The notes under the pieces: generated by a model | Databases searched by the model: none | What the model saw: only the letters and a program-made list of their open reading frames with translations | What the model was told of the DNA's origin: nothing | DNA from: a virus | Taxonomy: Duplodnaviria; Caudoviricetes | Direction: 5' to 3' (one strand) | IMG/VR virus record: IMGVR_UViG_3300025357_000014 | Location: 1 to 57,624 of that record | Length of the DNA: 57,624 nucleotides | In this document: positions 1 through 44,473 of the stretch, in pieces | Layout of the letters: every line of letters starts with the position of its first letter | Position numbering within the stretch: position 1 is the first letter of the stretch | Program-made: the position numbers and the translations under genes

Positions 1-297
1 TTCTACTTCCTTGAGGCTGGACGTAAGATTGGTGTCTACCTCTGTGACCAGCGTGCCTACGGTACAGCACTTGCCATGATCAAAGACAATGGTCGTGATG
101 CAGTACTGCCACGTTACTTGGCTACACTTAACACACTCTCAACTGAGCAAGTTGAGCAGTTCAAGACTGAAGCTCAGTCTGGTGCTAAGAAGCGTAACGC
201 AGCTCAGCAAAAGTTGTTCTTATCAGTATTCAAGAACATCAAGAGCACTATCGTAAGCCTCGTGCCTACGAAGTCAGAAGTAGAATCTACTAACTAG
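1..297 (+). CDS. hypothetical protein, 5'-partial
   Basis: Frame is open from base 1 (FYFLEAGRKIGVYLCDQRAYGTALAM...) to TAG at 295-297, so the gene starts upstream of the window. Confidence 0.75.
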   Translation, partial: FYFLEAGRKIGVYLCDQRAYGTALAMIKDNGRDAVLPRYLATLNTLSTEQVEQFKTEAQSGAKKRNAAQQKLFLSVFKNIKSTIVSLVPTKSEVESTN

Positions 298-307
298 TAG
301 ATAAGCA

Positions 308-338
308 TTACATCCTGGGTATGATGTAAAACTGCCCA
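308..338 (+). ncRNA. H-type pseudoknot motif, copy 1
   Basis: Stem TTACATC/GATGTAA with loop CTGGGTAT; loop TGGGTA pairs with downstream TGCCCA. Same architecture at 6793 and 8308 with compensatory stem changes. Confidence 0.75.
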
Positions 339-430
339 CCCACACATCATAGATTTTGTATGTACCCTTCAATGGAACTGTGTGGGGCCATGCTGTGAAG
401 CATTAATTAACCCAAAAGAAAGGAATTATC

Positions 431-703
431 ATGTCAATAGATGAGGCATTCAATGTATTCATAGAAGAGTACAAAGGTATTGAATGTAAGCAACAATTCG
501 TTCTCGGCCCAGTCTTCAAAAATTGGGAGGGAACTATTGAATGGGCTAATAATCTCTATGGTACTACTAATAGTGATTGGATAGTAATGACTGAGGGAGA
601 TAATAATGTTCCCCGCACTACAGGATTAACTGCGACTAAAAGGCGTAAGTTATCTTCTAAGACAGTACGCATTATTATTCAGCCCATGTTTGCAATAGCT
701 TAG
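431..703 (+). CDS. hypothetical protein
   Basis: 90-aa ORF with an AACCCAAAAGAAAGGA leader/SD. Confidence 0.7.
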   Translation: MSIDEAFNVFIEEYKGIECKQQFVLGPVFKNWEGTIEWANNLYGTTNSDWIVMTEGDNNVPRTTGLTATKRRKLSSKTVRIIIQPMFAIA

Positions 704-783
704 GCTTGCTTAGATGCTTATAACTTAGGCTTGTATACGCTAAGCTAAATGCTTTATGTGGAACATATACGAACACTTGTTAG

Positions 784-799
784 TGTTCCACGTGGAACA
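784..799. promoter_or_regulatory. parS-type 16-bp palindrome TGTTCCACGTGGAACA
   Basis: Perfect palindrome matching the bacterial chromosomal parS consensus TGTTNCACGTGNAACA; an extra half-site GTGGAACA lies at ~758-765. Confidence 0.6.
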
Positions 800-819
800 T
801 ATGTATCGATTCGATATAT

Positions 820-863
820 GCCCCTCATGTATAATCATATAGGTTATATGTGGGGGGCTTTAT
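820..863 (+). terminator. long G-U-containing hairpin followed by TTTAT (possible terminator or structured RNA)
   Basis: GCCCCTCATGTATAATC pairs with GGTTATATGTGGGGGGC; short U tail only. Confidence 0.35.
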
Positions 864-958
864 CATAGCCTAAAAAAACTTGCATGTGTTTAGACACACG
901 CATTGCACTCTGTTTTCAGATATATCTGAATTCATATGGTAACTCTAATTTGTATACA

Positions 959-1076
959 TAGTAGGTTGCAATGGCATCCGTACTTATTCACCTTGATGAT
1001 GGTATATACGTCTAACTCTTACCCCCCGGTAAAGACGTATGTATCGAGTGAGTACGGGTGTCATTGGGACATACTA
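959..1076 (+). ncRNA. long rod-like RNA stem-loop
   Basis: 969-989 pairs with 1046-1066 (21 bp, 4 G-U) and 1001-1013 with 1033-1045 (13 bp, 2 G-U); capped by TTACC-CCCC-GGTAA. Confidence 0.65.
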
Positions 1077-1134
1077 TAGACGTGAGTCTAGAGATGTCTT
1101 CATTACCCAAAGTAAGAAAGAAAGTAGGTTAAGT

Positions 1135-1542
1135 ATGCCGAGCGTACTTCAGTTAGATAGATGCTGTTGGAACTATCATTTGCAGGTTAGTGATTATGAG
1201 GGGCTCCCGCCGATGGCTAAGGAGTTAACTCATGTACACATTCACCTTGCATCTGTGGAATACTTTGATGTGGTGGCTATTGCTACCATACAGAGTAACT
1301 TCAATGGTTTGTGGGATTTGCTTACAACGAATCCCCGCGCCAATGAGGCCTCAGCATCTGAGTTATTGAGTCAGTTGAAGAGTAACATTCGTGCTAGCTA
1401 TCGCCAGGAGTTTAAGTCTGGTTTGCTAGTGCCTGTGCATAACTGTTCTCCCCGCCGCGTCCAGAATTCATTCGAGCACATCATGTTCAATCAGGGTGTT
1501 GTTTTGTATGATCCTGAGCGTGACGGCGTACCTCAGTTCTAG
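1135..1542 (+). CDS. hypothetical protein
   Basis: Track start 1039 lies inside the RNA rod; ATG 1135 follows an ACCCAAAGTAAGAAAGAAAGTAGG leader. Confidence 0.65.
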   Translation: MPSVLQLDRCCWNYHLQVSDYEGLPPMAKELTHVHIHLASVEYFDVVAIATIQSNFNGLWDLLTTNPRANEASASELLSQLKSNIRASYRQEFKSGLLVPVHNCSPRRVQNSFEHIMFNQGVVLYDPERDGVPQF

Positions 1543-1550
1543 GATATCTA

Positions 1551-1853
1551 ATGGCTAATACTATTAAATGTACTATGTGCTGGAAAGAGACTCCATTACA
1601 GTTCCCCGACATTGATGGGGCTGAGTCTCAGGTAGAGAATGGTGTTCAGCTCATATTCCAAGTAGGATATGGTATGTTCACTGATGTTGACTTTGGTAGC
1701 GAATGGTCTTCGCCCGAGGCTATCCTTTGTCATGACTGTGTGATTAAAGTCTTGGATTTATTCCCTGAACCATTCAGGAAACGATTCCAAGATGGTCACG
1801 CTGTTGGTACAAAGGGTTGTGATGGGTGCAGCTATTCGTTTCAGATAGACTGA
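1551..1853 (+). CDS. hypothetical Cys-rich (probable Zn-binding) protein
   Basis: CTMC, CHDC and CDGC motifs; AGGA SD. Confidence 0.7.
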   Translation: MANTIKCTMCWKETPLQFPDIDGAESQVENGVQLIFQVGYGMFTDVDFGSEWSSPEAILCHDCVIKVLDLFPEPFRKRFQDGHAVGTKGCDGCSYSFQID

Positions 1854-1910
1854 TTGTTGCACAGTCCTCACCTCGATCATTAAGGTGGGGACGATGGGAT
1901 GATCAGTCCC

Positions 1911-1937
1911 CCACTAGGGATGGTGGTTAAACTATCC
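1911..1937 (+). ncRNA. divergent H-type pseudoknot copy
   Basis: CCAC-TAGGGATG-GTGG-TTAAAC-TATCC: 8-nt loop and TAAAC linker as in the other copies; preceded by a 10-bp hairpin at 1864-1892. Confidence 0.4.
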
Positions 1938-1970
1938 ATGCAGTACAACCCAAAGTAGGAGGTTAGGTAC

Positions 1971-2579
1971 ATGAGTACACTGCGTAAGCTGTGTAGTTGT
2001 GTAGTTCTTGCTGCTACGGCGAGTACGGTACCACAAGCGAGTGCAATTGTGAATCCTGGGCAACCCCAGGTGGAACCAATTACACGTGCTGTTGCTCCCA
2101 CTGATGTGTTGTTTAGTACGGAGGTTATATCTCCCACTATTCTGACATCATACAGTGATAGCCAGCCGCTTGCAGTACCTACAAAGCCATGGTTCAGGTT
2201 TACACCTAGGTATTTACCTGGTGAGAACCCTGAGCTGCAGCAATGGGACACAACAGACACAGATGCAACAGCAACATGGCCTGATGCTGCTGATCCAGTA
2301 CGGCAATTGCCGATGGCGATTCAAGTGAAGTTTGCTTGCATTCGTTATCACGAGAGCCGCAATCACCTACACTCGGTTAACATAACGAGTGGTGCTGGTG
2401 GTTGGTATCAGTTCACCCCGTACATCTGGGGGTATGCAGTAGCACAACTACCTGGATTGCCTGCATCAATTGCGCAAGCAACTGGTGCTCAGCAGTCTGA
2501 AGTAGCTGTGTTTTACTACAAACGTAATGGTAGTCTTTACCCTGAATGGGGTGGGGACGCTGGCGTTTGTAACTTGTAG
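1971..2579 (+). CDS. secreted Rpf-like lytic transglycosylase
   Basis: N-terminal signal peptide; C-terminal CIRYHESRN...GAGGWYQFTPYIW...ATGAQQSEVA...W...C matches the resuscitation-promoting-factor domain with its catalytic Glu (ES motif). Confidence 0.8.
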   Translation: MSTLRKLCSCVVLAATASTVPQASAIVNPGQPQVEPITRAVAPTDVLFSTEVISPTILTSYSDSQPLAVPTKPWFRFTPRYLPGENPELQQWDTTDTDATATWPDAADPVRQLPMAIQVKFACIRYHESRNHLHSVNITSGAGGWYQFTPYIWGYAVAQLPGLPASIAQATGAQQSEVAVFYYKRNGSLYPEWGGDAGVCNL

Positions 2580-2581
2580 TA

Positions 2582-2612
2582 AATGGTATGGGTTCCACCA
2601 TTAACGGGCCCA
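2582..2612 (+). ncRNA. H-type pseudoknot motif, variant copy
   Basis: Stem AATGGT/ACCATT; loop TGGGTTC pairs with downstream GGGCCCA. Confidence 0.6.
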
Positions 2613-2638
2613 CTTACCCAAACAAGAAAGGCAGTAAA

Positions 2639-3070
2639 ATGACAAGTAAGAAAATGAGTGAGATGATTCAAGATACTCTCGAGTTAATCGATAGCATTCT
2701 TAATCGTCCTGCTACTAGGAGTCAGGTACTTTCAGTGATCAAGCACATTGAATCACTAGAATCTAAGTCTGAATCTAAAGCAGCAGTAGCCACTGAGACT
2801 AGGATAGTTAAGCCTAAGCCTAAAAAGCAACGGTCTTACATATCTTGGCGTGACCACACCTTTGAAGGTTGGTTTACCAATGTCTTGGATGGCAATGCAC
2901 ATCTTATCACGTACACTGAGATGACTAACTTAGTACCAGAATGGCGTAAGATTAACCGTTCTAGTATGCGTAACCGATTCCGTACGGAAGCCGAACGTCG
3001 TGGTTACAAATCAGTGACTGTTAGGTTTGACAACGAAGAGAAAATGATTTTCGTTCAAGCTTTAATGTAA
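2639..3070 (+). CDS. hypothetical basic protein, possibly DNA-binding
   Basis: Start moved to ATG 2639 after ACCCAAACAAGAAAGGCAGTAAA; K/R-rich. Confidence 0.7.
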   Translation: MTSKKMSEMIQDTLELIDSILNRPATRSQVLSVIKHIESLESKSESKAAVATETRIVKPKPKKQRSYISWRDHTFEGWFTNVLDGNAHLITYTEMTNLVPEWRKINRSSMRNRFRTEAERRGYKSVTVRFDNEEKMIFVQALM

Positions 3071-3084
3071 CCTAGTTTAACTAG

Positions 3085-3144
3085 GTGGAGTAAGTGGTAT
3101 CACAGATGGGAATCTGGGAGGGGTTCAACTCCCCATACTCCACG
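3085..3144 (+). ncRNA. tRNA-like element 1 (no anticodon loop)
   Basis: Acceptor-like GTGGAGTA/TACTCCAC, D-loop-like AGTGGTA, CAGAT-GGGA-ATCTG hairpin in place of the anticodon arm, T arm GGGG-TTCAACT-CCCC. Confidence 0.6.
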
Positions 3145-3249
3145 ATGGTATCTTACACATACCAGGCAGTAACAGGATGCGGGTGGACGCAGCCCTGACA
3201 CAATACAGAAACCACATACCTAAAACAAGAAGAAAGTAAGGAAAAGATT

Positions 3250-4005
3250 ATGAGTGAAGCAACCTACGAAGGCATGCCTATCCCACAGTGCTACATTGAC
3301 ATTCAAGATGCTTTGGAGTCTGGTACAGATCGTATCATTCTCTACGGTCGTCCTGGTACTGGTAAGACTTACTCCGGCCTCACAGCTGGTGTGTCTGATC
3401 CAAGTCAGTCTGAGCGTCTAGTATGTACTGAGGACATGACATCAGCCGACGTTTCAGGTGCATTCATGCCTAACGTAAGCGGTGGGTTTGAGTTCCTACC
3501 TGGTGCAGCTTTGCGTGCTTGGACCAACGGTACTCGTTTAGTTATTGACGAGATCGATAAAGCTGGCGGTGACGTATTCGCCCAGCTCCTAGCATTCACT
3601 GACACCGTAGACTCAGCATCATTTACACGACCAGACAATGGGGAAGTAGTTCGTCCTAAGCCTGGTTTCTCTGTTGTGATGACCTCTAACATTGAGGATC
3701 CACGTGACCTGCCTACTGCACTTAAGGACCGGTTCCCGTTTGCAATCGAAGTCAATGCAGCACACCCTGCTGCCTTGGTTAAGTTGCCACCACAGCTTCG
3801 TCTGTTGGCTGCAACTATGATTGCTGCAGAGCCTGGTCAACGTGCTAGTTTGCGTGCGTTCTATGAGTTCAATCGTCTACTATCTGGTGGTCGGTTCTCT
3901 CTTGAGCGTGCAGCTAACCTGATCTTCGGACCAGTGTTAGCAACGCAGATCATACGCTGCATGTCTGTTGGCACATTGGAGCCTGAATTCACACTCACGG
4001 TGTAA
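3250..4005 (+). CDS. MoxR/CbbQ-type AAA+ ATPase
   Basis: Walker A GRPGTGKT, Walker B LVIDEID, sensor TSN, arginine finger ALKDRF. Confidence 0.88.
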   Translation: MSEATYEGMPIPQCYIDIQDALESGTDRIILYGRPGTGKTYSGLTAGVSDPSQSERLVCTEDMTSADVSGAFMPNVSGGFEFLPGAALRAWTNGTRLVIDEIDKAGGDVFAQLLAFTDTVDSASFTRPDNGEVVRPKPGFSVVMTSNIEDPRDLPTALKDRFPFAIEVNAAHPAALVKLPPQLRLLAATMIAAEPGQRASLRAFYEFNRLLSGGRFSLERAANLIFGPVLATQIIRCMSVGTLEPEFTLTV

Positions 4006-4008
4006 ATC

Positions 4009-5493
4009 ATGAGTGACGAACTAATGGATCCAATTATTCCACTAGCTGATGTTGTGTCTGCATTTCGTGATGACATAACTACAACAACTAAGTGGCAAGT
4101 GCAAGCAACAGCAGGTGAGTTCGGTGCTGGTGTTGACTTTGCTGCTGGGATTCTAGCTGTCCCCCTCTCGGGTGACAGTTATTCTCAGCAAGTACAGTTA
4201 CGCAAGCTAGTTGAACTACGTTGTTCTCCTACTGATCCAGCTTTATACAAACAAGTAGCTACCTTTTATCAGGAACAAGGTATCACTGAGAGTGTTCTCC
4301 GTGCTGCCGAAGCTGCTCGTATCTCAGCTATCACTGAGAAGTTTGCTGTACAGTTTGGTTTGAAATCAGAACCAGATGGATCAGAGAAGAATCGTGGCAA
4401 GAATCTAGCATCTGCTAAGTCTGCTGCTGCATGGGACCAGGCTGTTGAGTTCACACTTAGACATCATGGTACGAAAGCCTTTGACTCGTTCGCGAGTGGT
4501 GTTCGTGCCGTTAATCCTGAGTGGAGCAAGTCATTGCGTGCTCTCAACAAGCGACTCACTAGTACACTAGCTGGTTCAGCACGTGGTCTCGGTGACACTA
4601 GTCCAATGCAATTTGGCCATGGTGTTACTGGGCCTGCTGGTTTTGCCAACTCTGTGTATGCTGCTAGTGTTGTACGTGACTACTTGTCAGATGGATATAA
4701 AGCTCCTGATGACATGCGAAGAATGCGTCAAGCACTAGAAGAGAAGCGTGCTGAAAACTATGGTGATGTTGATCCTAAAGATTTATCTGAGCGAGGTAAA
4801 TTAACTCCGCAAGAGATGAGTGTTGACGACGATATTCCTGATGGTTTTGAGTTTAGTGACGACTCTGACTTTGGTAAGCTACGTGTTTGTGACACGTTGC
4901 CACTAACAGTTGAGGTTCCAGGTTACATGCATCGTAAACGTAAAGCAATGACATCTGGTCGTCGCATTGCGTATCCATCTCGTATGCTTACTGACCCACA
5001 ACGTCGTGTGTTCGGCACTAAGGTTCGTGTTAAGGGTGGTATCGTAGTCATTGACATCTCAGGTTCTATGAGTCTGAGTCAAGATGACATCGAAGCCATC
5101 GTTAACAACGCACCTGCTGCTGTTATCATTGCGTACAGTGACTGTGGCGATGACCCTGAGCCTAACGCTTGGGTCTTAGCTAATCGTGGCTGGCGTGTTA
5201 GGGAAGTAGGTAACATCGGTGGTCATAACAATGGTGTTGACGGACCAGCTCTTACATGGGCTATTCGTCATCGTCATCGTAATGAGGAAATCATCTGGGT
5301 CACTGACGGTCACGTTACTGGCATCAAAGGTGGTTCCAATGCACAACTAGCTGTTGAGTGTGCTAAGTTAGTTAAGAAACACAAAATCATTATGATTCCT
5401 AGTGTTGAAGAGGCTGTTAAGCAGTTCAAATCTGGTAGGTTTATTAATAAACCTCACGGTTATGTACGCGAAGCCTTGCTTGGCAAACTTTAA
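4009..5493 (+). CDS. vWA-domain protein, partner of the AAA+ ATPase
   Basis: MIDAS motif IDISGSMS and downstream VTDG; adjacent to the MoxR-like ATPase. Confidence 0.82.
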   Translation: MSDELMDPIIPLADVVSAFRDDITTTTKWQVQATAGEFGAGVDFAAGILAVPLSGDSYSQQVQLRKLVELRCSPTDPALYKQVATFYQEQGITESVLRAAEAARISAITEKFAVQFGLKSEPDGSEKNRGKNLASAKSAAAWDQAVEFTLRHHGTKAFDSFASGVRAVNPEWSKSLRALNKRLTSTLAGSARGLGDTSPMQFGHGVTGPAGFANSVYAASVVRDYLSDGYKAPDDMRRMRQALEEKRAENYGDVDPKDLSERGKLTPQEMSVDDDIPDGFEFSDDSDFGKLRVCDTLPLTVEVPGYMHRKRKAMTSGRRIAYPSRMLTDPQRRVFGTKVRVKGGIVVIDISGSMSLSQDDIEAIVNNAPAAVIIAYSDCGDDPEPNAWVLANRGWRVREVGNIGGHNNGVDGPALTWAIRHRHRNEEIIWVTDGHVTGIKGGSNAQLAVECAKLVKKHKIIMIPSVEEAVKQFKSGRFINKPHGYVREALLGKL

Positions 5494-5503
5494 TCACGTG
5501 TTT

Positions 5504-5598
5504 GTTGGTATCTTATAAACCAACAACTGGGGTGTCTATCAAGCGACACCTCAGTACCATGCATTACATTGTAATGCAGTGTATCCAAATGGATACTG
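5504..5598 (+). other. chain of four intergenic hairpins
   Basis: GTTGGT/ACCAAC, ACTGGGGTGTC/GACACCTCAGT, TGCATTAC/GTAATGCA and GTATCCA/TGGATAC. Confidence 0.5.
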
Positions 5599-5622
5599 TA
5601 ACCAAAATAACAAGGAGTAAGT

Positions 5623-6033
5623 ATGTCAGAAGAAGAGTTCAACTTCGGTGATCTCGATCTACAATTGGATGAGAGTACTCAAGCGCGTATTGCACACGCT
5701 GAGTTTCTTGAATCAATTAAAGATTGGGGTTCTACCATGGGATTGATTGCTGTTCCATTCACTCACATGGCTCAGGCTGTTGCTATTGCTGAGGAAGATG
5801 ATACATCAGAAGATGAAAAGCACAAGTTATACAAACGTGTTGCAACTGCAATGCCAACTGGTGTTGCTATTGTTGTTGAGCATATCAATGAGTTGTATAC
5901 TATGTTGCAAGTGGAAGCCGTAAAAATACTCGGTGAACCATTCATGTTCCATGATAGTCATCACCCACATTGTGATGGTACCCGTGAAAACTGCGGTCAC
6001 CAAGATCACTACAAATCCGATACCAATGAGTAA
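5623..6033 (+). CDS. hypothetical acidic protein with His/Cys-rich C-terminus
   Basis: 136-aa ORF, AAGGAG SD, HDSHHPHC...CGHQDH tail. Confidence 0.75.
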   Translation: MSEEEFNFGDLDLQLDESTQARIAHAEFLESIKDWGSTMGLIAVPFTHMAQAVAIAEEDDTSEDEKHKLYKRVATAMPTGVAIVVEHINELYTMLQVEAVKILGEPFMFHDSHHPHCDGTRENCGHQDHYKSDTNE

Positions 6034-6046
6034 GGAAGGAGGAACC

Positions 6047-6205
6047 ATGGAAGAAACACTCAACCGATTGAAAGCAGAGACTCAGCAGATGAGAGAGATG
6101 GTAGCACAATCAACCACTCTTGAAACTGCTCAGGCTATGGCAATACGCATGATCAACCTAGTTGATACAGTTGTGGAATTGCTAGTTAAGCAATCAGTTA
6201 AGTAG
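6047..6205 (+). CDS. small helical hypothetical protein
   Basis: ATG 6047 follows AAGGAGG; MEETLNRLKAETQQMREM... Confidence 0.65.
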   Translation: MEETLNRLKAETQQMREMVAQSTTLETAQAMAIRMINLVDTVVELLVKQSVK

Positions 6206-6792
6206 TTGAGGACAAGAACGTTAAGGCTCTACTAATCTATTAAGTTAGGTTATGTTAGAGTGCTTTTCCTTCTTGTTGTTGCATCTACATAAGCCTATCT
6301 AAACAAGTTAGTGGGCCTTATCTATCCATAGCAGCTTGCAACCTGCTGTGGCGTTAGAACACCACGCGAGTGTGTTCAACCTACATGATTTGTCATGAGT
6401 CATGTAGGTTCTGTTGTGGTACTACCAGTTAATCGCCTTGCCAGTGTGCGCTTTGATAGGCACGAGAGCCACGCAATGATACTTGTACGCCACACACTCA
6501 GCCTGAAGGGAAGTTCAGGTAGGAAGCGCATCCTTAACAGCACTATGAGGTCTAGGCCACTGACCCAAAAAACGTGGCAAGCCTATGCATGCTGTCATGG
6601 TGTGCATAGGCACTCAGCCTAACTTATGTACTGACTACGTCTATGAGATAAGTTAGATGACTCATCATGTGGGGAAGCACATGGAGGTCAGCCTAAACCT
6701 TAATTAGCGACCTGTTGGTGGTGTAGGTGAGCCAACGACCTGAGTGGTGTGAAGGTAACCACTAGCCTTGTGAGTGAGCTTTTGTAACTCTC
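6206..6792 (+). ncRNA. candidate large multidomain structured ncRNA (~590 nt)
   Basis: No credible ORF; more than 10 helices, nested multibranch closure (6307-6321 with 6545-6564), GNRA loop, two GGGAAG loops and long-range pairing 6437-6443/6575-6581. Confidence 0.7.
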
Positions 6793-6820
6793 TGTCCTGG
6801 GTATGACATTAAAGTGCCCA
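6793..6820 (+). ncRNA. H-type pseudoknot motif, copy 2
   Basis: TGTC-CTGGGTAT-GACA-TTAAAG-TGCCCA. Confidence 0.75.
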
Positions 6821-6855
6821 CTTAAACATTACCCAAATAGAAAGGCAGTAAGATT

Positions 6856-7143
6856 ATGCGTATAGAAGGAAGACACAACGATGATAAGACTGAGATTCAA
6901 ATCATTGTTAAAATAGAGGGTGAAGGAGAATTTGAAGCCTTTACTCATTTCTTTCAAGAAATGATTCAGAACATGGCTAGTGCTGCGGATGCTCTTCTCA
7001 TTGATCCAATCAATGAAAAAGTATACAAAGGCGAAGACGTGACTGATGAAATGGTTCTGGATGCAATGAAAGATTTTGCTATTCAGAAAGCAACTGAAGC
7101 CAACCGTGATTCGGATCCAAGTATGCGTATCAATTTCATCTAA
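6856..7143 (+). CDS. hypothetical protein
   Basis: 95-aa ORF with an ACCCAAATAGAAAGGCAGTAAG leader. Confidence 0.75.
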   Translation: MRIEGRHNDDKTEIQIIVKIEGEGEFEAFTHFFQEMIQNMASAADALLIDPINEKVYKGEDVTDEMVLDAMKDFAIQKATEANRDSDPSMRINFI

Positions 7144-7156
7144 AGAAAGGAATAAC

Positions 7157-7540
7157 ATGTCAAGAAGAATATCATGGCGTAAATCGCCTGATGCTGATAT
7201 CTGGCGTGCTAAAGTTCCACAACATTACAAAGTTGAATGTAGACTTGTAATACATGCTGGTGTAGTTAACAGTTCAGTAATGAATAAGAATGCTAGACTA
7301 GAAGTACAAGTACCAACAACAGGTAGGAATTATAAAACCGTAATAATTGTAGAATTTTATAGCAGTTGGTGGGCCAAAGAGTATGTAGATTCTTTACTTC
7401 AAGTAATGTATTTTTATGATTTTGATAGTAAGGATCATGCATTTCAATGGTTCATTGATATTTTAAGTAAAGTACAAAAAATAGATCAACCTGAAACATC
7501 AGAAGGTAGTTGGACTAGTCTAACTGGTTGGTCTAGATAA
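7157..7540 (+). CDS. hypothetical protein
   Basis: Start moved to ATG 7157 after GAAAGGA (MSRRISWRK...). Confidence 0.7.
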   Translation: MSRRISWRKSPDADIWRAKVPQHYKVECRLVIHAGVVNSSVMNKNARLEVQVPTTGRNYKTVIIVEFYSSWWAKEYVDSLLQVMYFYDFDSKDHAFQWFIDILSKVQKIDQPETSEGSWTSLTGWSR

Positions 7541-7546
7541 TAAAAA

Positions 7547-7604
7547 CAGAAAGCCCGGGAGGGCTCTTGGTGGAGTTGACCGTCCCCAACTGATGAAGAG
7601 GTCA
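7547..7604 (+). ncRNA. type II hammerhead ribozyme (predicted cleavage after C7566)
   Basis: GAAA 7549-7552; stem III GCCC-GGGA-GGGC; CUC cleavage triplet; stem I TTGG(T)GGA/TCCCCAA; CTGATGA 7590-7596; loop I TGACC pairs with 3' GGTCA. Stem II is vestigial. Confidence 0.7.
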
Positions 7605-7629
7605 TAACCAAAAGTAAGAAAGGAAACAT

Positions 7630-8298
7630 ATGTCTAAGGACATTTTGTGGATTGCTATGCGCGATGGTAAAGGCTGGGCTTCCAGTCGTACTCGTGACAT
7701 GGTAGACTTAGCCTTTACGGTTAGTAAGTATGACAAGAAAAACGGTGGATCGTTAGTTGTCATTCGTAAACCTAATCGTGATGATGATCCAAAGTCGCGT
7801 GCGACTGTGGTGATTGGCATGGTCTACTATGACTCAGTATCTGAAGCTAAGGCTGCAGTTAAAGCTGCTGTTGACAATGCTAACATGAGTAGTTCAAATA
7901 AGGAGAGTGCTCGCACTACACTATTAGAACAGATGTTAATAACGTCTAACACCAATGCTAATGCAATTATTGTTATTGGTCATAAGGTAAGATCACAAGG
8001 TCATTACAGTTCAACTACTGTTATGAATAGTGTTAATACTACAGTTGAAAGCACAATGCAGGAGGAAGTTGAAGCTGAAATAGAGCGTAGACTAGAAGCT
8101 GCACCAGATGCTATGCAACAATGGTTAGACATGACTAAAGATCTTACTGAGACTTTTAGCATGACCAAAGCTGTAGCAGATGTACAAGCAGTAGTTGAGG
8201 TTGCCTTTGACCCTAGCACATGGCAAGAAGGTCAGCCTTACCCATCAGAGTACATGCTGGTGGGTGGTCGTCTCATGAAGATGGAATGGCCTAAGTAG
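7630..8298 (+). CDS. hypothetical protein
   Basis: 222-aa ORF with an AACCAAAAGTAAGAAAGGA leader. Confidence 0.8.
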   Translation: MSKDILWIAMRDGKGWASSRTRDMVDLAFTVSKYDKKNGGSLVVIRKPNRDDDPKSRATVVIGMVYYDSVSEAKAAVKAAVDNANMSSSNKESARTTLLEQMLITSNTNANAIIVIGHKVRSQGHYSSTTVMNSVNTTVESTMQEEVEAEIERRLEAAPDAMQQWLDMTKDLTETFSMTKAVADVQAVVEVAFDPSTWQEGQPYPSEYMLVGGRLMKMEWPK

Positions 8299-8307
8299 TA
8301 TCGTAGT

Positions 8308-8336
8308 ATCACCTGGGTATGTGATTAAACTGCCCA
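8308..8336 (+). ncRNA. H-type pseudoknot motif, copy 3
   Basis: ATCAC-CTGGGTAT-GTGAT-TAAAC-TGCCCA. Confidence 0.75.
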
Positions 8337-8365
8337 TTCAAACTAAAATAAGTAAGGAATATATA

Positions 8366-8761
8366 ATGAAAACATATTTTATCAAAGCTGGCACCGATGT
8401 TGATATTGATGTTATTCCATGTGATCAAATAAACTCATATGATTTCATCAAAGAAAGCATAGGTGGTGGTACATTTGATTGTATTGCTTTACCTAGTTTA
8501 GGTATAGACATCTGGATTGATGATGATGGTAAGTTAGTTGAGGATCCTAAAATAAATCTGCTTGGTACTGCACTCTGGATGAAAGAGTACGGTCCAACTG
8601 ATACAATTATGGGAAACATCGTTATTACTGGTGGTGTTGATGATGATGGTAATACTATTGGCATGACTGAGGAAAAGGGTAAAGAAATAATTGCCTTAGC
8701 TAAAGTATTTGTTGATGCACTTACCAATCAAATAATGGATGAAATTATACTAGGAAAATAA
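8366..8761 (+). CDS. DUF3846-like protein
   Basis: IGGG.FDCI...IWIDDDGKL...N...T.L...DTIMGNIVITG..D.DG.T pattern; start moved to ATG 8366 after TAAGGA. Confidence 0.7.
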   Translation: MKTYFIKAGTDVDIDVIPCDQINSYDFIKESIGGGTFDCIALPSLGIDIWIDDDGKLVEDPKINLLGTALWMKEYGPTDTIMGNIVITGGVDDDGNTIGMTEEKGKEIIALAKVFVDALTNQIMDEIILGK

Positions 8762-8768
8762 TAAAGCA

Positions 8769-8816
8769 GCCCTAGTCTGGTGATGAAGTAAGCTAGTTCA
8801 ATTCTAGCTTAGGGCG
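8769..8816 (+). ncRNA. tRNA-like element 2 (acceptor + T arm, no anticodon arm)
   Basis: 7-bp GCCCTAG/TTAGGGC stacked on 5-bp GCTAG-TTCAATT-CTAGC; 16-nt connector containing TGGTGATGAAGTA. Confidence 0.7.
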
Positions 8817-8865
8817 CTCCCAAGTAGGGAATGTAGTATAACCAAAAACAATAAGGAGTAAGCAC

Positions 8866-9414
8866 ATGGGTTTAGACCAGATGCTATTTGCAGTAACAAG
8901 CCATCCCGATAACCACGACTTCGGATACGATCCTGATGCTCAGTATCGTCAGTTTGGTAGTTGGCGTAAGCATCCCTATCTTCAAGGTTGGATGGAAAAA
9001 CTATTCAATACTAAGGCAGATGCTCAAGGTTATGTAGGTCATGGTGAATACCATGATGGTATTGAAGTTATGGCGCGTGAAGCTGATGGCAATGAGATGA
9101 CACCTGAGATGATGCAGCAAGCATTAGATTCTGATTCTGAAATGCTTAAGAAGATTAAACAAGAACAGTTTACTTCTAAAGCTATTCATACAACTAAGGA
9201 TCGCATCTTTAATCAGCAATGCGTCAGACTTAACATAGGTGATTTAGATCAACTAGAGATGGCTATTAAGTTAGGTGAGCTACCAGCAACCAAAGGATTC
9301 TTCTTTGGTGATGATGCTAGCGAACACTATAAAGAATACGATTTAAAAGTTATTGAAGCAGCTCGTCAAGCTGTTAAACTAGGTCTAGATGTATACTACG
9401 ATTCATGGTGGTAA
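8866..9414 (+). CDS. conserved phage hypothetical protein (MGLD...WRKH...GFFFG...YYDSWW type)
   Basis: Motif pattern of a widespread uncharacterised phage family; TAAGGAG SD. Confidence 0.75.
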   Translation: MGLDQMLFAVTSHPDNHDFGYDPDAQYRQFGSWRKHPYLQGWMEKLFNTKADAQGYVGHGEYHDGIEVMAREADGNEMTPEMMQQALDSDSEMLKKIKQEQFTSKAIHTTKDRIFNQQCVRLNIGDLDQLEMAIKLGELPATKGFFFGDDASEHYKEYDLKVIEAARQAVKLGLDVYYDSWW

Positions 9415-9447
9415 CATCTAACAAGGTTGCATTTGGGTAATGCATCA

Positions 9448-9498
9448 GTCCCAGCCAGTCGGTGGTGAAGTATGGTGGTTCGACTCCACCTTGGGACG
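9448..9498 (+). ncRNA. tRNA-like element 3 (acceptor + T arm, no anticodon arm)
   Basis: 7-bp GTCCCAG/TTGGGAC, T arm GGTGG-TTCGACT-CCACC, connector containing GGTGGTGAAGTA; followed by the same 17-mer GCTCCCAAGTAGGGAAT as element 2. Confidence 0.72.
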
Positions 9499-9539
9499 CT
9501 CCCAAGTAGGGAATACATAAAACAAGTAAGGAGAATAAC

Positions 9540-9950
9540 ATGGGTGACCGTGGACATGTAGAGATTATCAGTGAGGGAGATCCAACACTGTATTACTACA
9601 CACACTGGGGTGCTTCAGGTTTACCAACAGATGTTGCTGATGCTTTGCATCGTGGCAAAGGACGTTGGGATGACAGTGAGTATCTCAATCGTATCATCTT
9701 CTCAGAAATGATTAAGGATTCTGTTCTATCAGATACTGGGTATGGTATTGGTTTCCACCAGCATGGTGATGTATGGCGTATTGTAACAATAGATCACGTC
9801 AACAAAACTGCTGGTATTAAAGAAATCAACTACGATAAAGTAGATTGGTCTAACTACAATGAAGATGATGTAGTATGGGATTGGAAATTAGAACCAGTAC
9901 CATTTGAAGTGTTTGTTTATCTTAATAGTTTAGTTACAGCAAAGGAATAA
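9540..9950 (+). CDS. conserved phage hypothetical protein
   Basis: MGDRGHV...YYYTHWGA...RWDDSEYLNRIIF; TAAGGAG SD. Confidence 0.75.
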   Translation: MGDRGHVEIISEGDPTLYYYTHWGASGLPTDVADALHRGKGRWDDSEYLNRIIFSEMIKDSVLSDTGYGIGFHQHGDVWRIVTIDHVNKTAGIKEINYDKVDWSNYNEDDVVWDWKLEPVPFEVFVYLNSLVTAKE

Positions 9951-9952
9951 TC

Positions 9953-10117
9953 ATGGGTAAAAAACTAGACAAAGCTTTCTATCAACTGAGCAATGAAACT
10001 CGTCATCACATTAACTTAGCAATGGCTAAGCAAGAAGATTACGAAAATGGATTTGCTCAGGGATTTTCGGAAGCACTACGCATAGTAGCAAAGATAAGAG
10101 AGGAGGAGAATGAGTAA
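9953..10117 (+). CDS. small hypothetical protein (54 aa)
   Basis: Hand-translated MGKKLDKAFYQLSNETRHH...IREEENE; AAGGA SD. Confidence 0.6.
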   Translation: MGKKLDKAFYQLSNETRHHINLAMAKQEDYENGFAQGFSEALRIVAKIREEENE

Positions 10118-10274
10118 AACATTTACATGTCCTCGTTGTGAAGAAACTTGGACGGGCTTTCCAGCCCTATCTAGGCTAGACAACAGGACAGAGATTTGCT
10201 CACCATGTGGCATGCAGGAAGGTCTTGATGATTACTTTCACCAGCCATTAGTAAAATATAAATTAACCAATTAA
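10110..10274 (+). CDS. small zinc-ribbon protein (54 aa)
   Basis: Hand-translated MSKTFTCPRCEETWTGFPALSRLDNRTEICSPCG...; AGGAGGAG SD. Confidence 0.7.
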   Translation: MSKTFTCPRCEETWTGFPALSRLDNRTEICSPCGMQEGLDDYFHQPLVKYKLTN

Positions 10275-10289
10275 AAAAGGAATAAAACA

Positions 10290-10454
10290 ATGAAAACATT
10301 AATCGTAGCAAACGTACTAATGTGCGTAGCCGATGCTGTCCTAGCTATTGCTAGCTTAAATGCTGTCAATGCAGGTCTAGCTATCATGTGTGGGTTCAGT
10401 GCTTGGTACATCAACCAATTGCGAAACCTACGCAAACCAAAGCATAAGGCTTGA
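10290..10454 (+). CDS. small membrane protein (54 aa)
   Basis: Hand-translated MKTLIVANVLMCVADAVLAIASLNAVNAGLAIMCGFSAWY...; hydrophobic with a basic tail. Confidence 0.6.
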   Translation: MKTLIVANVLMCVADAVLAIASLNAVNAGLAIMCGFSAWYINQLRNLRKPKHKA

Positions 10455-10479
10455 CAAACTCATGTAACCGCAGTATAGT
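10451..10479 (+). promoter_or_regulatory. sigma70/SigA-type promoter for a leaderless HNH transcript
   Basis: TTGACA-17 nt-TATAGT with the GTG start 6 nt after the -10 box. Confidence 0.7.
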
Positions 10480-10485
10480 TACATC

Positions 10486-10911
10486 GTGAACCAAGTACGC
10501 CGCAACGCTCTCTATAACTTACAATCCAAGTATGTCGAATCTAACCTATGTTGGGTATGGACTGCTGCCATTAGTTCTGATGGCTACGGAGTATTCCGTA
10601 TGGAGGGTAAGTTATGGAGGGCGCATAGGGCGTCATATACTCTATATAAGGAAGATATACCTAAGGGTTTGCAGATAGATCATTTGTGTAGGAATAAGCT
10701 ATGTGTTAATCCTGAACATTTAGAGGCTGTTACACCTAAAGAGAATAGTAGGAGAGCTGCTGCTTTTAAGACCCATTGCCCCCGCGGACATATCTACACT
10801 ATCTATGGTAGGGTATGGGGAAAGAGATCTAAAGCTAAATACTGTATTCAGTGTAACAGGGATAAGACGAAGGCTCGACGGGCCTCCGCGAAAGTCGATA
10901 AAAATAAGTAA
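10486..10911 (+). CDS. HNH endonuclease
   Basis: CWVW...GYG...AHRASY...IDHLCRNKLCVNPEHLE plus a C-terminal KTHCPRGH...CIQC Zn finger. Confidence 0.88.
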   Translation: MNQVRRNALYNLQSKYVESNLCWVWTAAISSDGYGVFRMEGKLWRAHRASYTLYKEDIPKGLQIDHLCRNKLCVNPEHLEAVTPKENSRRAAAFKTHCPRGHIYTIYGRVWGKRSKAKYCIQCNRDKTKARRASAKVDKNK

Positions 10912-10923
10912 GAAAGGAGGAAT

Positions 10924-11106
10924 ATGGAAGAACATCCATTATGTTGGTGTGAGCATGAATATGAAGCACACCTATGGAATATTAGTCAAAATCCAGAATT
11001 TGAAGACTTAGAATCTGGAGAATGCCGTGAATGTGGGTCTTGGACTCGTAAGAATAAGTTTGAGACATATTGTAGTGAATACAAAGCATATAACCCAGTT
11101 AAGTAA
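10924..11106 (+). CDS. small Cys/His-rich protein
   Basis: CWCEH...H...CRECG...C; GAAAGGAGG SD. Confidence 0.65.
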   Translation: MEEHPLCWCEHEYEAHLWNISQNPEFEDLESGECRECGSWTRKNKFETYCSEYKAYNPVK

Positions 11107-11118
11107 GAAAGGGGTACT

Positions 11119-11367
11119 ATGCCCACAGATAGTGAAGCTAAGCTAGAACTGCTAAACAATGCAGTCAGCGAAATGGCATTGCTTGGATATCGACTAGATA
11201 AGATATTAGTTGGATTTAAGCTATATCATGAGCTTAGAGGTACTCCCGACATTGAACAATATCAAATGGTATTGCAAATGTACGAGGATGGTATGGCAGC
11301 TATGGAAGAACAAATGGTTAGATACCATAGGTTATTTTCATATCTGAAAGATCTGGTTGGTGAGTAA
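11119..11367 (+). CDS. hypothetical protein
   Basis: 82-aa ORF with GAAAGGGG SD. Confidence 0.65.
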   Translation: MPTDSEAKLELLNNAVSEMALLGYRLDKILVGFKLYHELRGTPDIEQYQMVLQMYEDGMAAMEEQMVRYHRLFSYLKDLVGE

Positions 11368-11411
11368 TCACCATCGGAATGTGGTACACTTAACCCAAAG
11401 GAAAGGAAAAT

Positions 11412-12095
11412 ATGAGCAAATTGGCTGATGTTGTTAAGAAAGTTCAAAAACTTCTTAATGTTGCCAACAGGAGTGACAAACCTGGTGAGATTGCAGCAGC
11501 ACAATTGCTAGCCCAACAACTGATAACTAAGTATCAGATTGAAGAAGCTCAGCTCCATGGGAATAGTATGAATGGTGATATTACCTCGGTACATATCGCT
11601 ACGCCAGACCCATATGCCATAGATAAAGCTACACTGCTTAACTCTATCGCTTTACCTAACTTCTGTAAGGTATTGCGCGGTGATGAGTATTGTATCATTT
11701 ATGGCTACGCTAGTGACATTGAACTCTGTGTTGCATTATATGATGTATTATCTATGCACATGATCAGTGAAATGACAGTTAAGCTAAAAGAGTTAAAGAA
11801 ATCTTCAACTGAGAAGATCCGTACTAAAGAATGGGTCAGAGGGTTCTTCGGCGGTTATGCTATCAATATTGGCGAGCGTATTAAGCAAGCTAAGAAAGAT
11901 ACCATCAAAGAAGTAGACAGTAACGGAACATCGCTAGCTCTTGTGTTACGAGATAAGCAACATGTTATTGAAGATTATTGGCAACAACTAGTTAGAAACA
12001 CAGGATCTAAGCGTAAGATTACTTCTATATCAGGCTATAAAGCTGGTAAAGAATCTGCCGCTGCCGCGGATCTCAACAAAAATAAAATAGAATAG
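11412..12095 (+). CDS. DUF2786-domain protein
   Basis: N-terminal KVQKLLNVA...EIAAAQLLAQQLITKYQI and C-terminal GY.AG...A..ADL patterns typical of this family. Confidence 0.75.
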   Translation: MSKLADVVKKVQKLLNVANRSDKPGEIAAAQLLAQQLITKYQIEEAQLHGNSMNGDITSVHIATPDPYAIDKATLLNSIALPNFCKVLRGDEYCIIYGYASDIELCVALYDVLSMHMISEMTVKLKELKKSSTEKIRTKEWVRGFFGGYAINIGERIKQAKKDTIKEVDSNGTSLALVLRDKQHVIEDYWQQLVRNTGSKRKITSISGYKAGKESAAAADLNKNKIE

Positions 12096-12104
12096 GATAA
12101 GTAT

Positions 12105-12416
12105 ATGCGAAGTAGGAAATTAGTATGGAAAGTCAAAGAACTGGCATCTAATCTACCCAATAATAAAGGGCATGATTGGATCTACGATGGCAATTGCCAA
12201 GGTAGTGATACAAACCAGTTTATATATCCTGCACTTACGTTGACTGAAAGCAAGAGGTATTATCTAGAAAAGATATGCAAAGATTGTCCAGTCATGCTAA
12301 CATGTAGGTATGAAGCAGTACGCAACCAAGACGAAGGCTGGTGGGGTGGTATGACACCAGAGGAACGTATGGATTGGGCAATAGAAGAATTATTCAAGGA
12401 AGCGTTAAATGATTAA
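12105..12416 (+). CDS. whiB: WhiB-family Fe-S transcription factor
   Basis: Four Cys (GNC...ICKDCPVMLTC) and the GWWGGMTPEER turn motif. Confidence 0.85.
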   Translation: MRSRKLVWKVKELASNLPNNKGHDWIYDGNCQGSDTNQFIYPALTLTESKRYYLEKICKDCPVMLTCRYEAVRNQDEGWWGGMTPEERMDWAIEELFKEALND

Positions 12417-12606
12417 TTTAGCCTACGCATTGATGTATGACACAGGTTATAACAGCGTAGAGATTTCAGGGCTCTACAGGTCACTTAAAGGGGCAATGGA
12501 GGCAGTTCCTAACAGTGATTGGAAGAAACATGAAACCTTGGCTATGTGGGAATCACTTACTGGCGATCAATACTGGTGCATTACGGTGCATGCTGTATTA
12601 GACTAA
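12409..12606 (+). CDS. hypothetical protein
   Basis: 65-aa ORF; its stop overlaps the convergent terminase stop. Confidence 0.6.
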   Translation: MINLAYALMYDTGYNSVEISGLYRSLKGAMEAVPNSDWKKHETLAMWESLTGDQYWCITVHAVLD

Positions 12607-44378: not shown

Positions 44379-44400
44379 ACTATTCCTTTACTTTACTATG

Positions 44401-44473
44401 TGCCCCAGGCAAGACTCGAACTTGCAACCTGCGGGTTAGAACTCCGATGCTCTATCCGTTGAGCTACTAGGGC
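44401..44473 (-). tRNA. tRNA-Arg(TCT)
   Basis: GCCCTAG-TA-GCTC AACGGATA GAGC-A-TCGGA GTTCTAA CCCGC-AGGTT-GCAAG TTCGAGT CTTGC-CTGGGGC-A; A20 Arg identity element; no encoded CCA; two anticodon-stem mismatches. Confidence 0.85.

Follow-up and report, generated by a model that had tools for sequence, protein, structure and literature searches.

The window analysed in this study is the whole of a linear IMG/VR record (IMGVR_UViG_3300025357_000014) from a virus of the Caudoviricetes, 57,624 bases long and estimated to be about 40% complete. The DNA runs that contain it are freshwater and lake metagenomes, and no close relative was found among named phages (phage collection, megablast and blastn). 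Bases 1-12,606 carry small genes on the + strand, including an AAA ATPase gene and a weak transglycosylase-like match. Beyond base 12,606 lie - strand genes for terminase, a large DNA polymerase, helicases, and baseplate and tail proteins. A compact H-type RNA pseudoknot of 28-31 nucleotides (nt) occurs in several sense-strand copies in the + strand region.

Pseudoknot copies, covariation and distribution

Three canonical copies were found. Copy 1 (308..338, + strand) pairs TTACATC with GATGTAA in stem 1 and TGGGTA with TGCCCA in stem 2, with C as loop 1, T at the junction and AAC as loop 3. Copy 2 (6793..6820, + strand) and copy 3 (8308..8336, + strand) have the same loop 1, junction and stem 2; their first stems are TGTC/GACA and ATCAC/GTGAT, and their third loops TTAAAG and TAAAC. 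The covariance model R1, which encodes stem 1 only, scored the three copies at 50.2, 43.6 and 47.3 bits, and the next-best match in the 57.6-kilobase (kb) window at 12.8 bits. The first-pass annotation had described three copies with a common loop, a 3' TGCCCA and compensatory changes in stem 1, and both the positions and the sequences were as reported. The pattern CTGGGTAT-N{4,14}-TGCCCA matched the window three times, always on the + strand, and gave 0 matches in 100 shuffles. The inverted repeat flanking CTGGGTAT differs in each of the three copies. The spacing from CTGGGTAT to TGCCCA is exactly 10 nt in 3/3 copies; this fixed spacing, a near-invariant AAAC before TGCCCA and a strand-specific U.G wobble had been missed by that annotation. 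Stem 1 of copy 1 nominally has up to 7 base pairs (bp), and 4-5 bp are probably effective because loop 3 would otherwise have only 3 nt.

Across the family, the sequence of stem 1 is free and its length 3-5 bp (nominally up to 7), loop 1 is a single C, stem 2 has 6 bp (UGGGUA/UGCCCA and covarying variants), the junction is one nucleotide (U or A), and the A-rich loop 3 ends in AAAC. About six G-poor nucleotides follow the knot. In 69 distinct sequences, the innermost pair of stem 1 is C-G or G-C, and TGCCCA is preceded, position by position, by A, A, A and C in 64, 67, 67 and 60 of them. TGGGTA and TGCCCA make six paired positions, one of which is the U.G wobble. The other strand would have a C.A mismatch there; therefore, the fold is strand-specific. 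This pair is UG in 60, CG in 25 and UA in 4 sequences (91 informative).

Six related loci, reached through the protein encoded at 4009-5493 (51-98% identity), carry the motif at orthologous places with compensatory changes in stem 1. For example, CGTC/GACG replaces TGTC/GACA in the orthologue of copy 2 (loci L006 and L007), and CGGT/ACCG replaces AATGGT/ACCATT. A descriptor that demanded both helices and AAAC, with the sequence of stem 2 left free, was run on about 125 loci and gave 64 matches, compared with 0-1 in five block-shuffled sets. Fourteen of the 64 have another stem 2 that still pairs, such as TGAGTA/TGCTCA, TGGCTA/TGGCCA or TAGGCA/TGCCTG. The ungapped alignment A1, from which R1 was built, holds 111 distinct instances and leaves out three descriptor matches judged to be chance (L055:1153, L098:4819 and L097:5987), the last of which R1 later recovered. 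The covariation score of A1 was 0.475, compared with 0.149 for shuffled and 0.03-0.10 for slid alignments. The R1 search covered 100 of about 155 loci (932 kb), the remaining loci being scanned by the descriptor script only, and returned 119 matches, including the new stem 2 variants GGGACA/TGTCCC, GGGGCA/TGCTCC and TGAACA/TATTCA. In the alignment of R1 matches, 94.9% of cells were paired (74.5% shuffled, 31-43% slid) and the covariation score was 0.529 (0.173 shuffled). R1 could not select for stem 2 pairing; in the 96 distinct R1 matches used for the pair counts, 96.0% of stem 2 cells were paired, with 27 double changes. Double changes occurred in 4/4 pairs of stem 1 and 3/6 pairs of stem 2, where 2 further pairs had one-sided changes. 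Among the matches listed by a fixed-gap pattern scan of viral contigs, together with the relatives and the window, a flanking stem of at least 3 bp was present in 93 of 132 and absent in 39. The counts come partly from related contigs.

The covariation in both of these interleaved helices indicates a real H-type pseudoknot. Conservation without strand-specific pairing, as in a double-stranded DNA operator or promoter, was not what was observed: both helices change in a compensatory way, and the wobble is U.G in 60 of the 91 sequences. The proposal of the first-pass annotation that the element is an RNA structure rather than a DNA operator was thus borne out by the two covarying helices, the strand-specific wobble and the sense orientation of all copies.

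The fourth copy (2582..2612, + strand) has AATGGT/ACCATT as stem 1, A as loop 1, TGGGTTC/GGGCCCA as stem 2 (7 pairs, two of them G.U), C at the junction and AAC as loop 3. It reads as first reported, and was not found by R1. Its sequence places it in a second subtype that recurs in other contigs. Of 100 distinct matches to the core pattern of this subtype (A-TGGGTTC-C ... GGGCCCA), chance accounts for most, and 9 carry ATGGGTTCCAC and a proper stem. Eight sequences, the window's included, were aligned in A3, which leaves out L199 (coding region) and L220 (cut by the contig end). Stem 1 covaries among them (CGGT/ACCG, AGGT/ACCT, TGCGT/ACGCA and others); stem 2 was fixed by the search pattern, and the covariation concerns stem 1 only. 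The fifth copy (1911..1937, + strand; CCAC, TAGGGATG, GTGG, TTAAAC, TATCCA) is divergent and doubtful. It keeps TTAAAC, reaches only 8.0 bits with R1 (E value 0.59) and requires a shifted register for stem 2, and we could not confirm it. The close relatives L004 and L005 carry an extra copy with stem 2 TGAACA/TATTCA (L004:4487-4522 and L005:839-874), which lies about 1.1-1.5 kb ahead of the position corresponding to the start of the window. The window's phage probably has this copy beyond the contig end.

Rfam 15 was searched with the window. At the gathering score, the whole window gave transfer RNA (tRNA) only and nothing on the motif. Bases 1-12700 at E values up to 10 gave no match on any copy, and bases 8290-8370 at E values up to 10 gave only DUF2815 (11.3 bits) and MS2 (10.5 bits), both far below threshold and off the structure. 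As this search gave no match, the earlier statement that the motif fits no named Rfam family holds. No description of the motif was found in the part of the literature available to us; a 2023 catalogue (PMC10690425), which collects about 8,500 candidates for structured RNAs in IMG/VR, may already list it in its supplementary tables. With more than 100 distinct sequences and both helices covarying, the motif has good support as a candidate new RNA family.

The motif had been introduced as a family within one genome. The window does hold several copies, but the family is in fact large and is shared by many unrelated phages, which alters its significance. A scan of viral contigs with a fixed-gap pattern gave at least 119 stretches. 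The 18-base core occurred 27 times in 185,579 prokaryote species genomes (one each, 596 gigabases), 19 times with the stem, and nearly all occurrences were in metagenome-assembled genomes. This indicates that the element is mainly viral. Named phages were surveyed with short BLAST probes, which is crude. The full motif was found in non-annotated gaps of Microbacterium phage Count, Corynebacterium phages phi673 and phi674, Rhodococcus phage Trina, Gordonia phage OneUp, Moorella phage MTATph1, deep-sea thermophilic phage D6E and Nostoc phage NMeng1. It was also found in a non-annotated gap of a 6-kb microvirus (five annotated genes, single-stranded DNA) and in two crAss-like phages. In phages of Proteobacteria, four BLAST probes gave no full motif, the matches being partial and inside genes. 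When whole records were searched with the model, Count, phi673 and D6E each had a single strong copy and MTATph1 had two. Few structured RNA motifs are so small and yet conserved in phages from several host phyla. The observation is borne out on a larger scale than first described, and it offers a candidate new RNA family with a testable function.

Nine bacterial loci (L134, L135, L143, L144, L145, L147, L150, L152 and L153) are genome contigs of metagenome-assembled Omnitrophota, Deltaproteobacteria, Aminicenantes, Spirochaetes and Planctomycetales. In these loci, a small conserved open reading frame (ORF; ..RP[VA]AHC[KSGD][ED]G[CH]..) ends at the knot, either inside the pseudoknot (..TCC TGG GTA TGA) or with TAG just before it. 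Downstream, in four of them, lie genes which, by eye from the N-terminal sequence, we take to be look-alikes of an Rrf2-type regulator, hybrid-cluster protein and oxidative-stress genes.

Stop codons, neighbouring genes and tRNAs

The motif lies in non-coding sequence in the sense orientation. A same-strand ORF of at least 50 amino acids ends just upstream of it in 104 of 131 distinct instances. The gap between the stop codon and stem 1 in these 104 was 4-7 nt in 57 and 3-10 nt in 71, and the distance from the end of the stop codon to the C of loop 1 was 9-10 nt in 50 and 8-11 nt in 60. Only two motifs overlap the stop codon, both bacterial. The upstream stops were TAA (71), TAG (23) and TGA (10), compared with a crude background of 915, 420 and 607, respectively. 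The last sense codon was AAG in 20 of 73 instances, compared with 4.2% in the background. The next start codon is about 5 to more than 90 nt away, a broader spread than that of the stop distance.

In the window, copy 1 starts 10 nt past a TAG stop (295-297), copy 3 starts 9 nt past a TAG stop (8296-8298), and the fourth copy follows the stops TAG TAA (2577-2582). Copy 2 forms the 3' end of a conserved 650-nt stretch without a long ORF. The distance from the end of the motif to the next plausible start codon was 92, 35 (ATG 6856), 30 (ATG 8367), 26 and 33 nt for copies 1, 2 and 3 and the fourth and fifth copies, respectively. The range of about 25-35 nt that the first-pass annotation gave for most copies is therefore right for four of the five.

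Among the 59 instances with ORFs on both sides, there were 17 upstream and 24 downstream gene families. A gene of the Hsp20 family (PHROG 432, E value 8e-36) precedes the knot in 14 instances, behind which 7 downstream families vary. The major head protein gene is another upstream gene, and the flanking families also include a kinase and unknowns. The data indicate that the knot stays with the upstream gene while the downstream genes vary. Many contigs have a sigma-70-like promoter in the interval from the knot to the following gene, at variable distance. Promoter-like sites are not enriched in the window itself (26 found, 30.6 expected).

The reading frames past the stop are short, with medians of 9, 12 and 12 codons in frames -1, 0 and +1 (73 contexts). 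A frameshift signal would have a slippery heptamer 5-9 nt upstream and a long -1 overlap; here, a stop codon lies 4-7 nt upstream. Readthrough would need an open in-frame extension; here, the median is 12 codons, and the window copies hit a second stop within 0-10 codons. Recoding was rejected because the extensions are short in all three frames. A Rho-independent terminator would have a U-tract directly after the stem. A T-run (at least 5 T within 12 nt) follows the knot in only 9 of 132 distinct instances and in 0 of the window copies, for which reason an intrinsic terminator was rejected as the general role. A true canonical terminator comes after the knot in L041 and L072. A sigma-70 promoter inside the motif was also rejected, because TAAACT fits the -10 hexamer in some copies only and the covariation disfavours a duplex site.

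The motif lies 2-25 nt ahead of the 5' end of a tRNA or transfer-messenger RNA (tmRNA) in five independent contexts, four of them at 2-5 nt. A tRNA-Lys follows after 2 nt in L097 and a tRNA-Asp after 25 nt in the L055 family. In Nostoc phage NMeng1, a pseudo-tRNA follows after about 4 nt, with the upstream stop 95 nt away; in Gordonia phage OneUp, a tRNA-Phe follows after 5 nt, with the upstream stop 40 nt away. The crAss-like phages cr124_1 and cr7_1 have a permuted tmRNA whose intervening loop contains the motif, and the 5' acceptor strand follows after 3 nt. These tmRNAs (L177:506-741 and L178:500-735) match Rfam RF04321 at 63-66 bits, and ARAGORN gave the tags GNVNNIVDYTNVA and DNVNNIVDYTNVA. 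No tmRNA was found in the window by ARAGORN or Rfam, and membership in a tmRNA holds only for cr124_1 and cr7_1. A role as a general tRNA leader element was rejected, a scan of viral contigs for the canonical core next to one tRNA 5' part having given 0 matches; it applies to a minority only.

A 497-bp cassette was observed at 8344-8839. It consists of the gene at 8367-8761 and a tRNA-like minihelix, and its left breakpoint is 7 nt past pseudoknot copy 3. By gene homology, it is also present in L008 and L009; it is absent from L005 and from the 98.7%-identical L004.

Possible functions of the knot

Our best reading of the sequence comparisons, held tentatively, is that the knot folds constitutively and serves as a barrier, which would set the 3' end of the upstream RNA and keep it from decay. 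A stem 2 of six pairs should fold constitutively, and it is the association with the upstream gene, together with the 4-nt lower limit of the stop gap, that favours a 3'-end barrier. The invariant C, the A-U junction pair and AAAC all lie at the helical junction, a region in which small pseudoknots like this one are known to form base triples. The knot would form constitutively as a part of the upstream RNA and would be mechanically stable, probably braced by a triplex. About 4 nt of messenger RNA (mRNA) are held single-stranded ahead of the A site of the ribosome, which equals the lower limit of the stop gap. This limit fits a structure which the terminating ribosome must not or cannot melt, and a distance of at least 4 nt from the stop would spare the knot from such melting. 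The transcript would be cut downstream by an endonuclease, or by RNase P where a tRNA or tmRNA follows, and 3'-5' exonucleases would then trim back to the knot. The barrier would thereby give the upstream cistron, or an upstream non-coding RNA, a fixed and protected 3' end, and the outcome would be a higher and independent expression of the upstream gene in dense phage operons without ordinary terminators.

Known systems resemble such a barrier in part. REP hairpins and the RNase III sites of phage T7 are sense-strand structures after the stops of strong genes and are proposed 3' exonuclease stops. The phage knot likewise lies just past the stop, inside or at the end of an operon; however, those are simple hairpins with little conservation across genomes, whereas the core of the knot is conserved across several host phyla. 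In the eukaryotic RNAs MALAT1 and MEN-beta, a compact, A-rich triple-helix element stands immediately before the RNase P cleavage site of a tRNA-like RNA, and the 3' end produced by the cut is protected. A similar arrangement is predicted from sequence before tRNA-Lys, tRNA-Phe, the pseudo-tRNA and the permuted tmRNA. MALAT1 differs in being nuclear and in that its triple helix captures the 3' tail itself, and the phage arrangement is a minority one. If the knot is a portable end-fixing barrier, it would explain graded expression in the dense operons of phages with few ordinary terminators, and it could serve as a 28-nt part for stabilising or insulating transcripts in engineered bacteria. Several independent systems are available for one mechanism, namely the knots before tRNAs, the permuted tmRNA precursor and the small ORF in stress operons of uncultured bacteria.

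Several points weigh against a 3'-end barrier. A plain G+C-rich hairpin would also stop exonucleases, and the strong conservation of the C, AAAC and the A-U junction could be explained only through assumed tertiary contacts. In phage D6E, the motif comes after a terminator-like hairpin and ahead of the scaffold gene; in the crAss-like phages, it sits in the discarded loop of the tmRNA, with no obvious upstream RNA to protect. Neither context is an easy fit. The knots of NMeng1 and OneUp are 95 and 40 nt from the stop and 4-5 nt from the tRNA, and are therefore tied to the downstream RNA there. The viral-contig scan for the canonical core with TAGCTCA (part of the 5' half of common tRNAs) downstream of it at tRNA distance gave 0 contigs, which makes tRNA adjacency a minority context. 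Nested single-sequence folds of the five copies gave z -0.07 to -1.41 relative to shuffles; nested folding is expected to be uninformative for a pseudoknot of this size, and the case therefore rests on comparison. Finally, many instances come from related contigs, so that the counts overstate the number of independent events.

A more far-reaching form of the 3'-end barrier is speculative, and we consider it unlikely. The knot could be a self-sufficient, phage-wide RNA end-cap, a 28-nt triplex pseudoknot with no protein partner, which stops universal bacterial exonucleases and ribosomes and is combined with RNase P sites; alternatively, its junction could bind a ligand or a ribosomal site and represent a new class of small sensor. 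If the end-cap exists, it would punctuate polycistronic RNA together with RNase P sites (tRNAs, tRNA-like minihelices and permuted tmRNA), and would be a prokaryotic counterpart of the MALAT1 triple helix and mascRNA.

The riboswitch, recoding, terminator and DNA-site readings fit less well than a barrier. The strongest competitor, which has only a small chance of being right, is that the knot is directed at the ribosome. With the stop codon in the A site, it would stand at the mRNA entry site and modulate termination, recycling, re-initiation or coupling, or shield downstream RNA (a ribosome binding site or tRNA) from terminating ribosomes. The sharp spacing between the stop and the C of loop 1 suggests this, and the same geometry is known for pseudoknot-stimulated recoding; however, compaction and the 4-nt lower limit account equally for the spacing. 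The excess of AAG as the last sense codon also points to the ribosome, but it comes from about ten gene families (grouped by eye). The small conserved ORF that ends inside or at the knot in nine bacterial loci fits as well. No extended reading frames past the stop were found, and window copy 2, the tmRNA loop, NMeng1 and OneUp have no nearby stop. Luteovirus-type frameshift pseudoknots (beet western yellows virus class) are about 28 nt long, with a short C-containing loop 1, a one-nucleotide junction and an A-rich loop expected in the minor groove of stem 1, and lie 4-7 nt past the A-site codon. The phage knot has the size class, C loop, junction, A-rich loop and 4-7-nt position in common with them, but it follows a stop codon and has no slippery site or overlapping frame, with extensions of about 10 codons.

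A site for a trans-acting factor is slightly less probable again. In this case, a host or phage protein, or a small ligand at the junction C, U and A as in preQ1-I, would bind the knot and regulate the neighbouring genes. A variable stem 1 with a near-invariant unpaired C, AAAC and junction pair is the pattern of an aptamer or protein operator. In the preQ1-I riboswitch (RF00522), likewise a tiny H-type pseudoknot, the first stem varies, unpaired residues at the junction are conserved and the third loop is A-rich; this topology and architecture are the same as in the phage knot. However, the Rfam search gave no match, preQ1 included, in an 81-nt slice at E values up to 10. The phage stem 2 has six pairs compared with 3-4 in preQ1-I, the phage loops have 1 nt, and neither a queuosine gene link nor an expression platform accompanies the knot. 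Stem 2 is long and G-C rich, and with six pairs, 3 of them G-C, it should fold without a ligand. The small-ligand sensor suggested by the first-pass annotation fits poorly, since the ribosome binding site lies at varying distances, terminators do not stand at a set position relative to the knot, and the neighbours (Hsp20, head protein, kinase and unknowns) are mutually unrelated. A copy in a 6-kb microvirus with five annotated genes makes a dedicated phage protein partner unlikely.

It is improbable that the knot is a transcription pause or termination signal, with a pseudoknot in place of the plain hairpin. Terminators typically occupy such a position, between a highly expressed gene and the promoter that comes next, and the early + strand region of the window has no excess of ordinary terminators (7 found, 7.7 expected). 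A T-run directly follows the microvirus copy and a few others, but the run is present in only the 9 of 132 instances given above, L041 and L072 have a separate canonical terminator after the knot, and many copies are inside apparent operons, 25-35 nt ahead of the next start.

No more probable is a barrier or processing mark that serves the downstream RNA. It would stop 5'-3' decay by RNase J or the action of 5'-end-dependent RNase E; alternatively, a nuclease would recognise it and make the 5' end of the tRNA, tmRNA or mRNA that follows. The four independent contexts at 2-5 nt before tRNA or tmRNA 5' ends are consistent with this, although tRNAs need no such protection. The named hosts are Actinobacteria, Firmicutes and one cyanobacterium, groups that have RNase J, and no full motif was seen in phages of Proteobacteria; this host survey is crude, with short BLAST probes. 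The knot stays with the upstream gene while the downstream gene changes, and a promoter often separates the knot from the gene that follows. The RNase J block protecting downstream RNA that was first proposed is therefore disfavoured, the motif being tied to the upstream stop and gene, while the barrier as such stays the leading idea. Exoribonuclease-resistant RNAs (xrRNAs) of flaviviruses and plant viruses, some of them intergenic, pair a hairpin loop with downstream sequence and thus form a nuclease barrier. The phage knot has the same loop-to-downstream pairing but is smaller than an xrRNA, in which a ring encloses the 5' end and the enzyme blocked works 5'-3'; none of the xrRNA families in Rfam matched, and the phage context points upstream.

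A DNA-level element (a phage-polymerase promoter, a single-stranded DNA priming signal or a recombination linker for cassette exchange) is very improbable: the fixed 10-nt spacing of two conserved boxes, the invariant CTG, the copy in a single-stranded DNA microvirus and the cassette indel with its left breakpoint 7 nt past copy 3 would suit it, but double-stranded sites have no such compensatory changes in two interleaved helices, the wobble works on one strand only, and the motif is strictly sense and tied in position to stop codons. In T4-type phages, the promoter-early stem-loop (PeSL) cassette, a short conserved structure with a promoter, borders small variable genes with gain and loss of cassettes. 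The 497-bp cassette next to copy 3 is a similar case; however, PeSLs are simple stem-loops in one phage group, not a covarying pseudoknot.

Other features of the window

A long hairpin (339..393, + strand; CCCACACA...TGTGTGGG, then G-CCA) directly abuts copy 1, and the same arrangement is found next to the motif in locus L096. It is possibly tRNA-like, a weak assignment; with a fold z of -0.32 (not better than shuffles), that reading was dropped and the feature was kept as a hairpin only. The only standard tRNA of the window is a tRNA-Arg (anticodon TCT) at 44400-44473 on the - strand. Three tRNA-like minihelices, each with an acceptor-like stem and a T-arm, lie in intergenic gaps of the + strand at 3085-3143, 8769-8817 and 9448-9499. 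Their T-arm loops are TTCAACT, TTCAATT and TTCGACT, and the last two minihelices are each followed by a shared GCTCCCAAGTAGGGAAT. Rfam gave only sub-threshold matches for them (tRNA-Sec, E value 1.5; Plastid-ycf2, E values 0.24 and 0.9), and the fold z-scores were -2.74, -2.35 and -0.80.

Upstream of copy 2, 6206-6792 is a stretch of about 590 nt without a long ORF and without an Rfam match. It is 78-82% identical to locus L006, compared with 67-69% for the neighbouring protein genes, and is a candidate large non-coding RNA. An ORF-free gap of 335 nt at 704-1038 contains long imperfect palindromes (e.g., 820-858, 17 pairs) and may be a regulatory or origin-like region. Many early + strand genes are preceded by a recurrent A/C-rich leader (AACCAAAA / ACCCAAA) and then an AAGGAG-like Shine-Dalgarno sequence, for example at 410-430, 1948-1970, 2615-2638, 5598-5622, 7600-7629 and 8845-8865.

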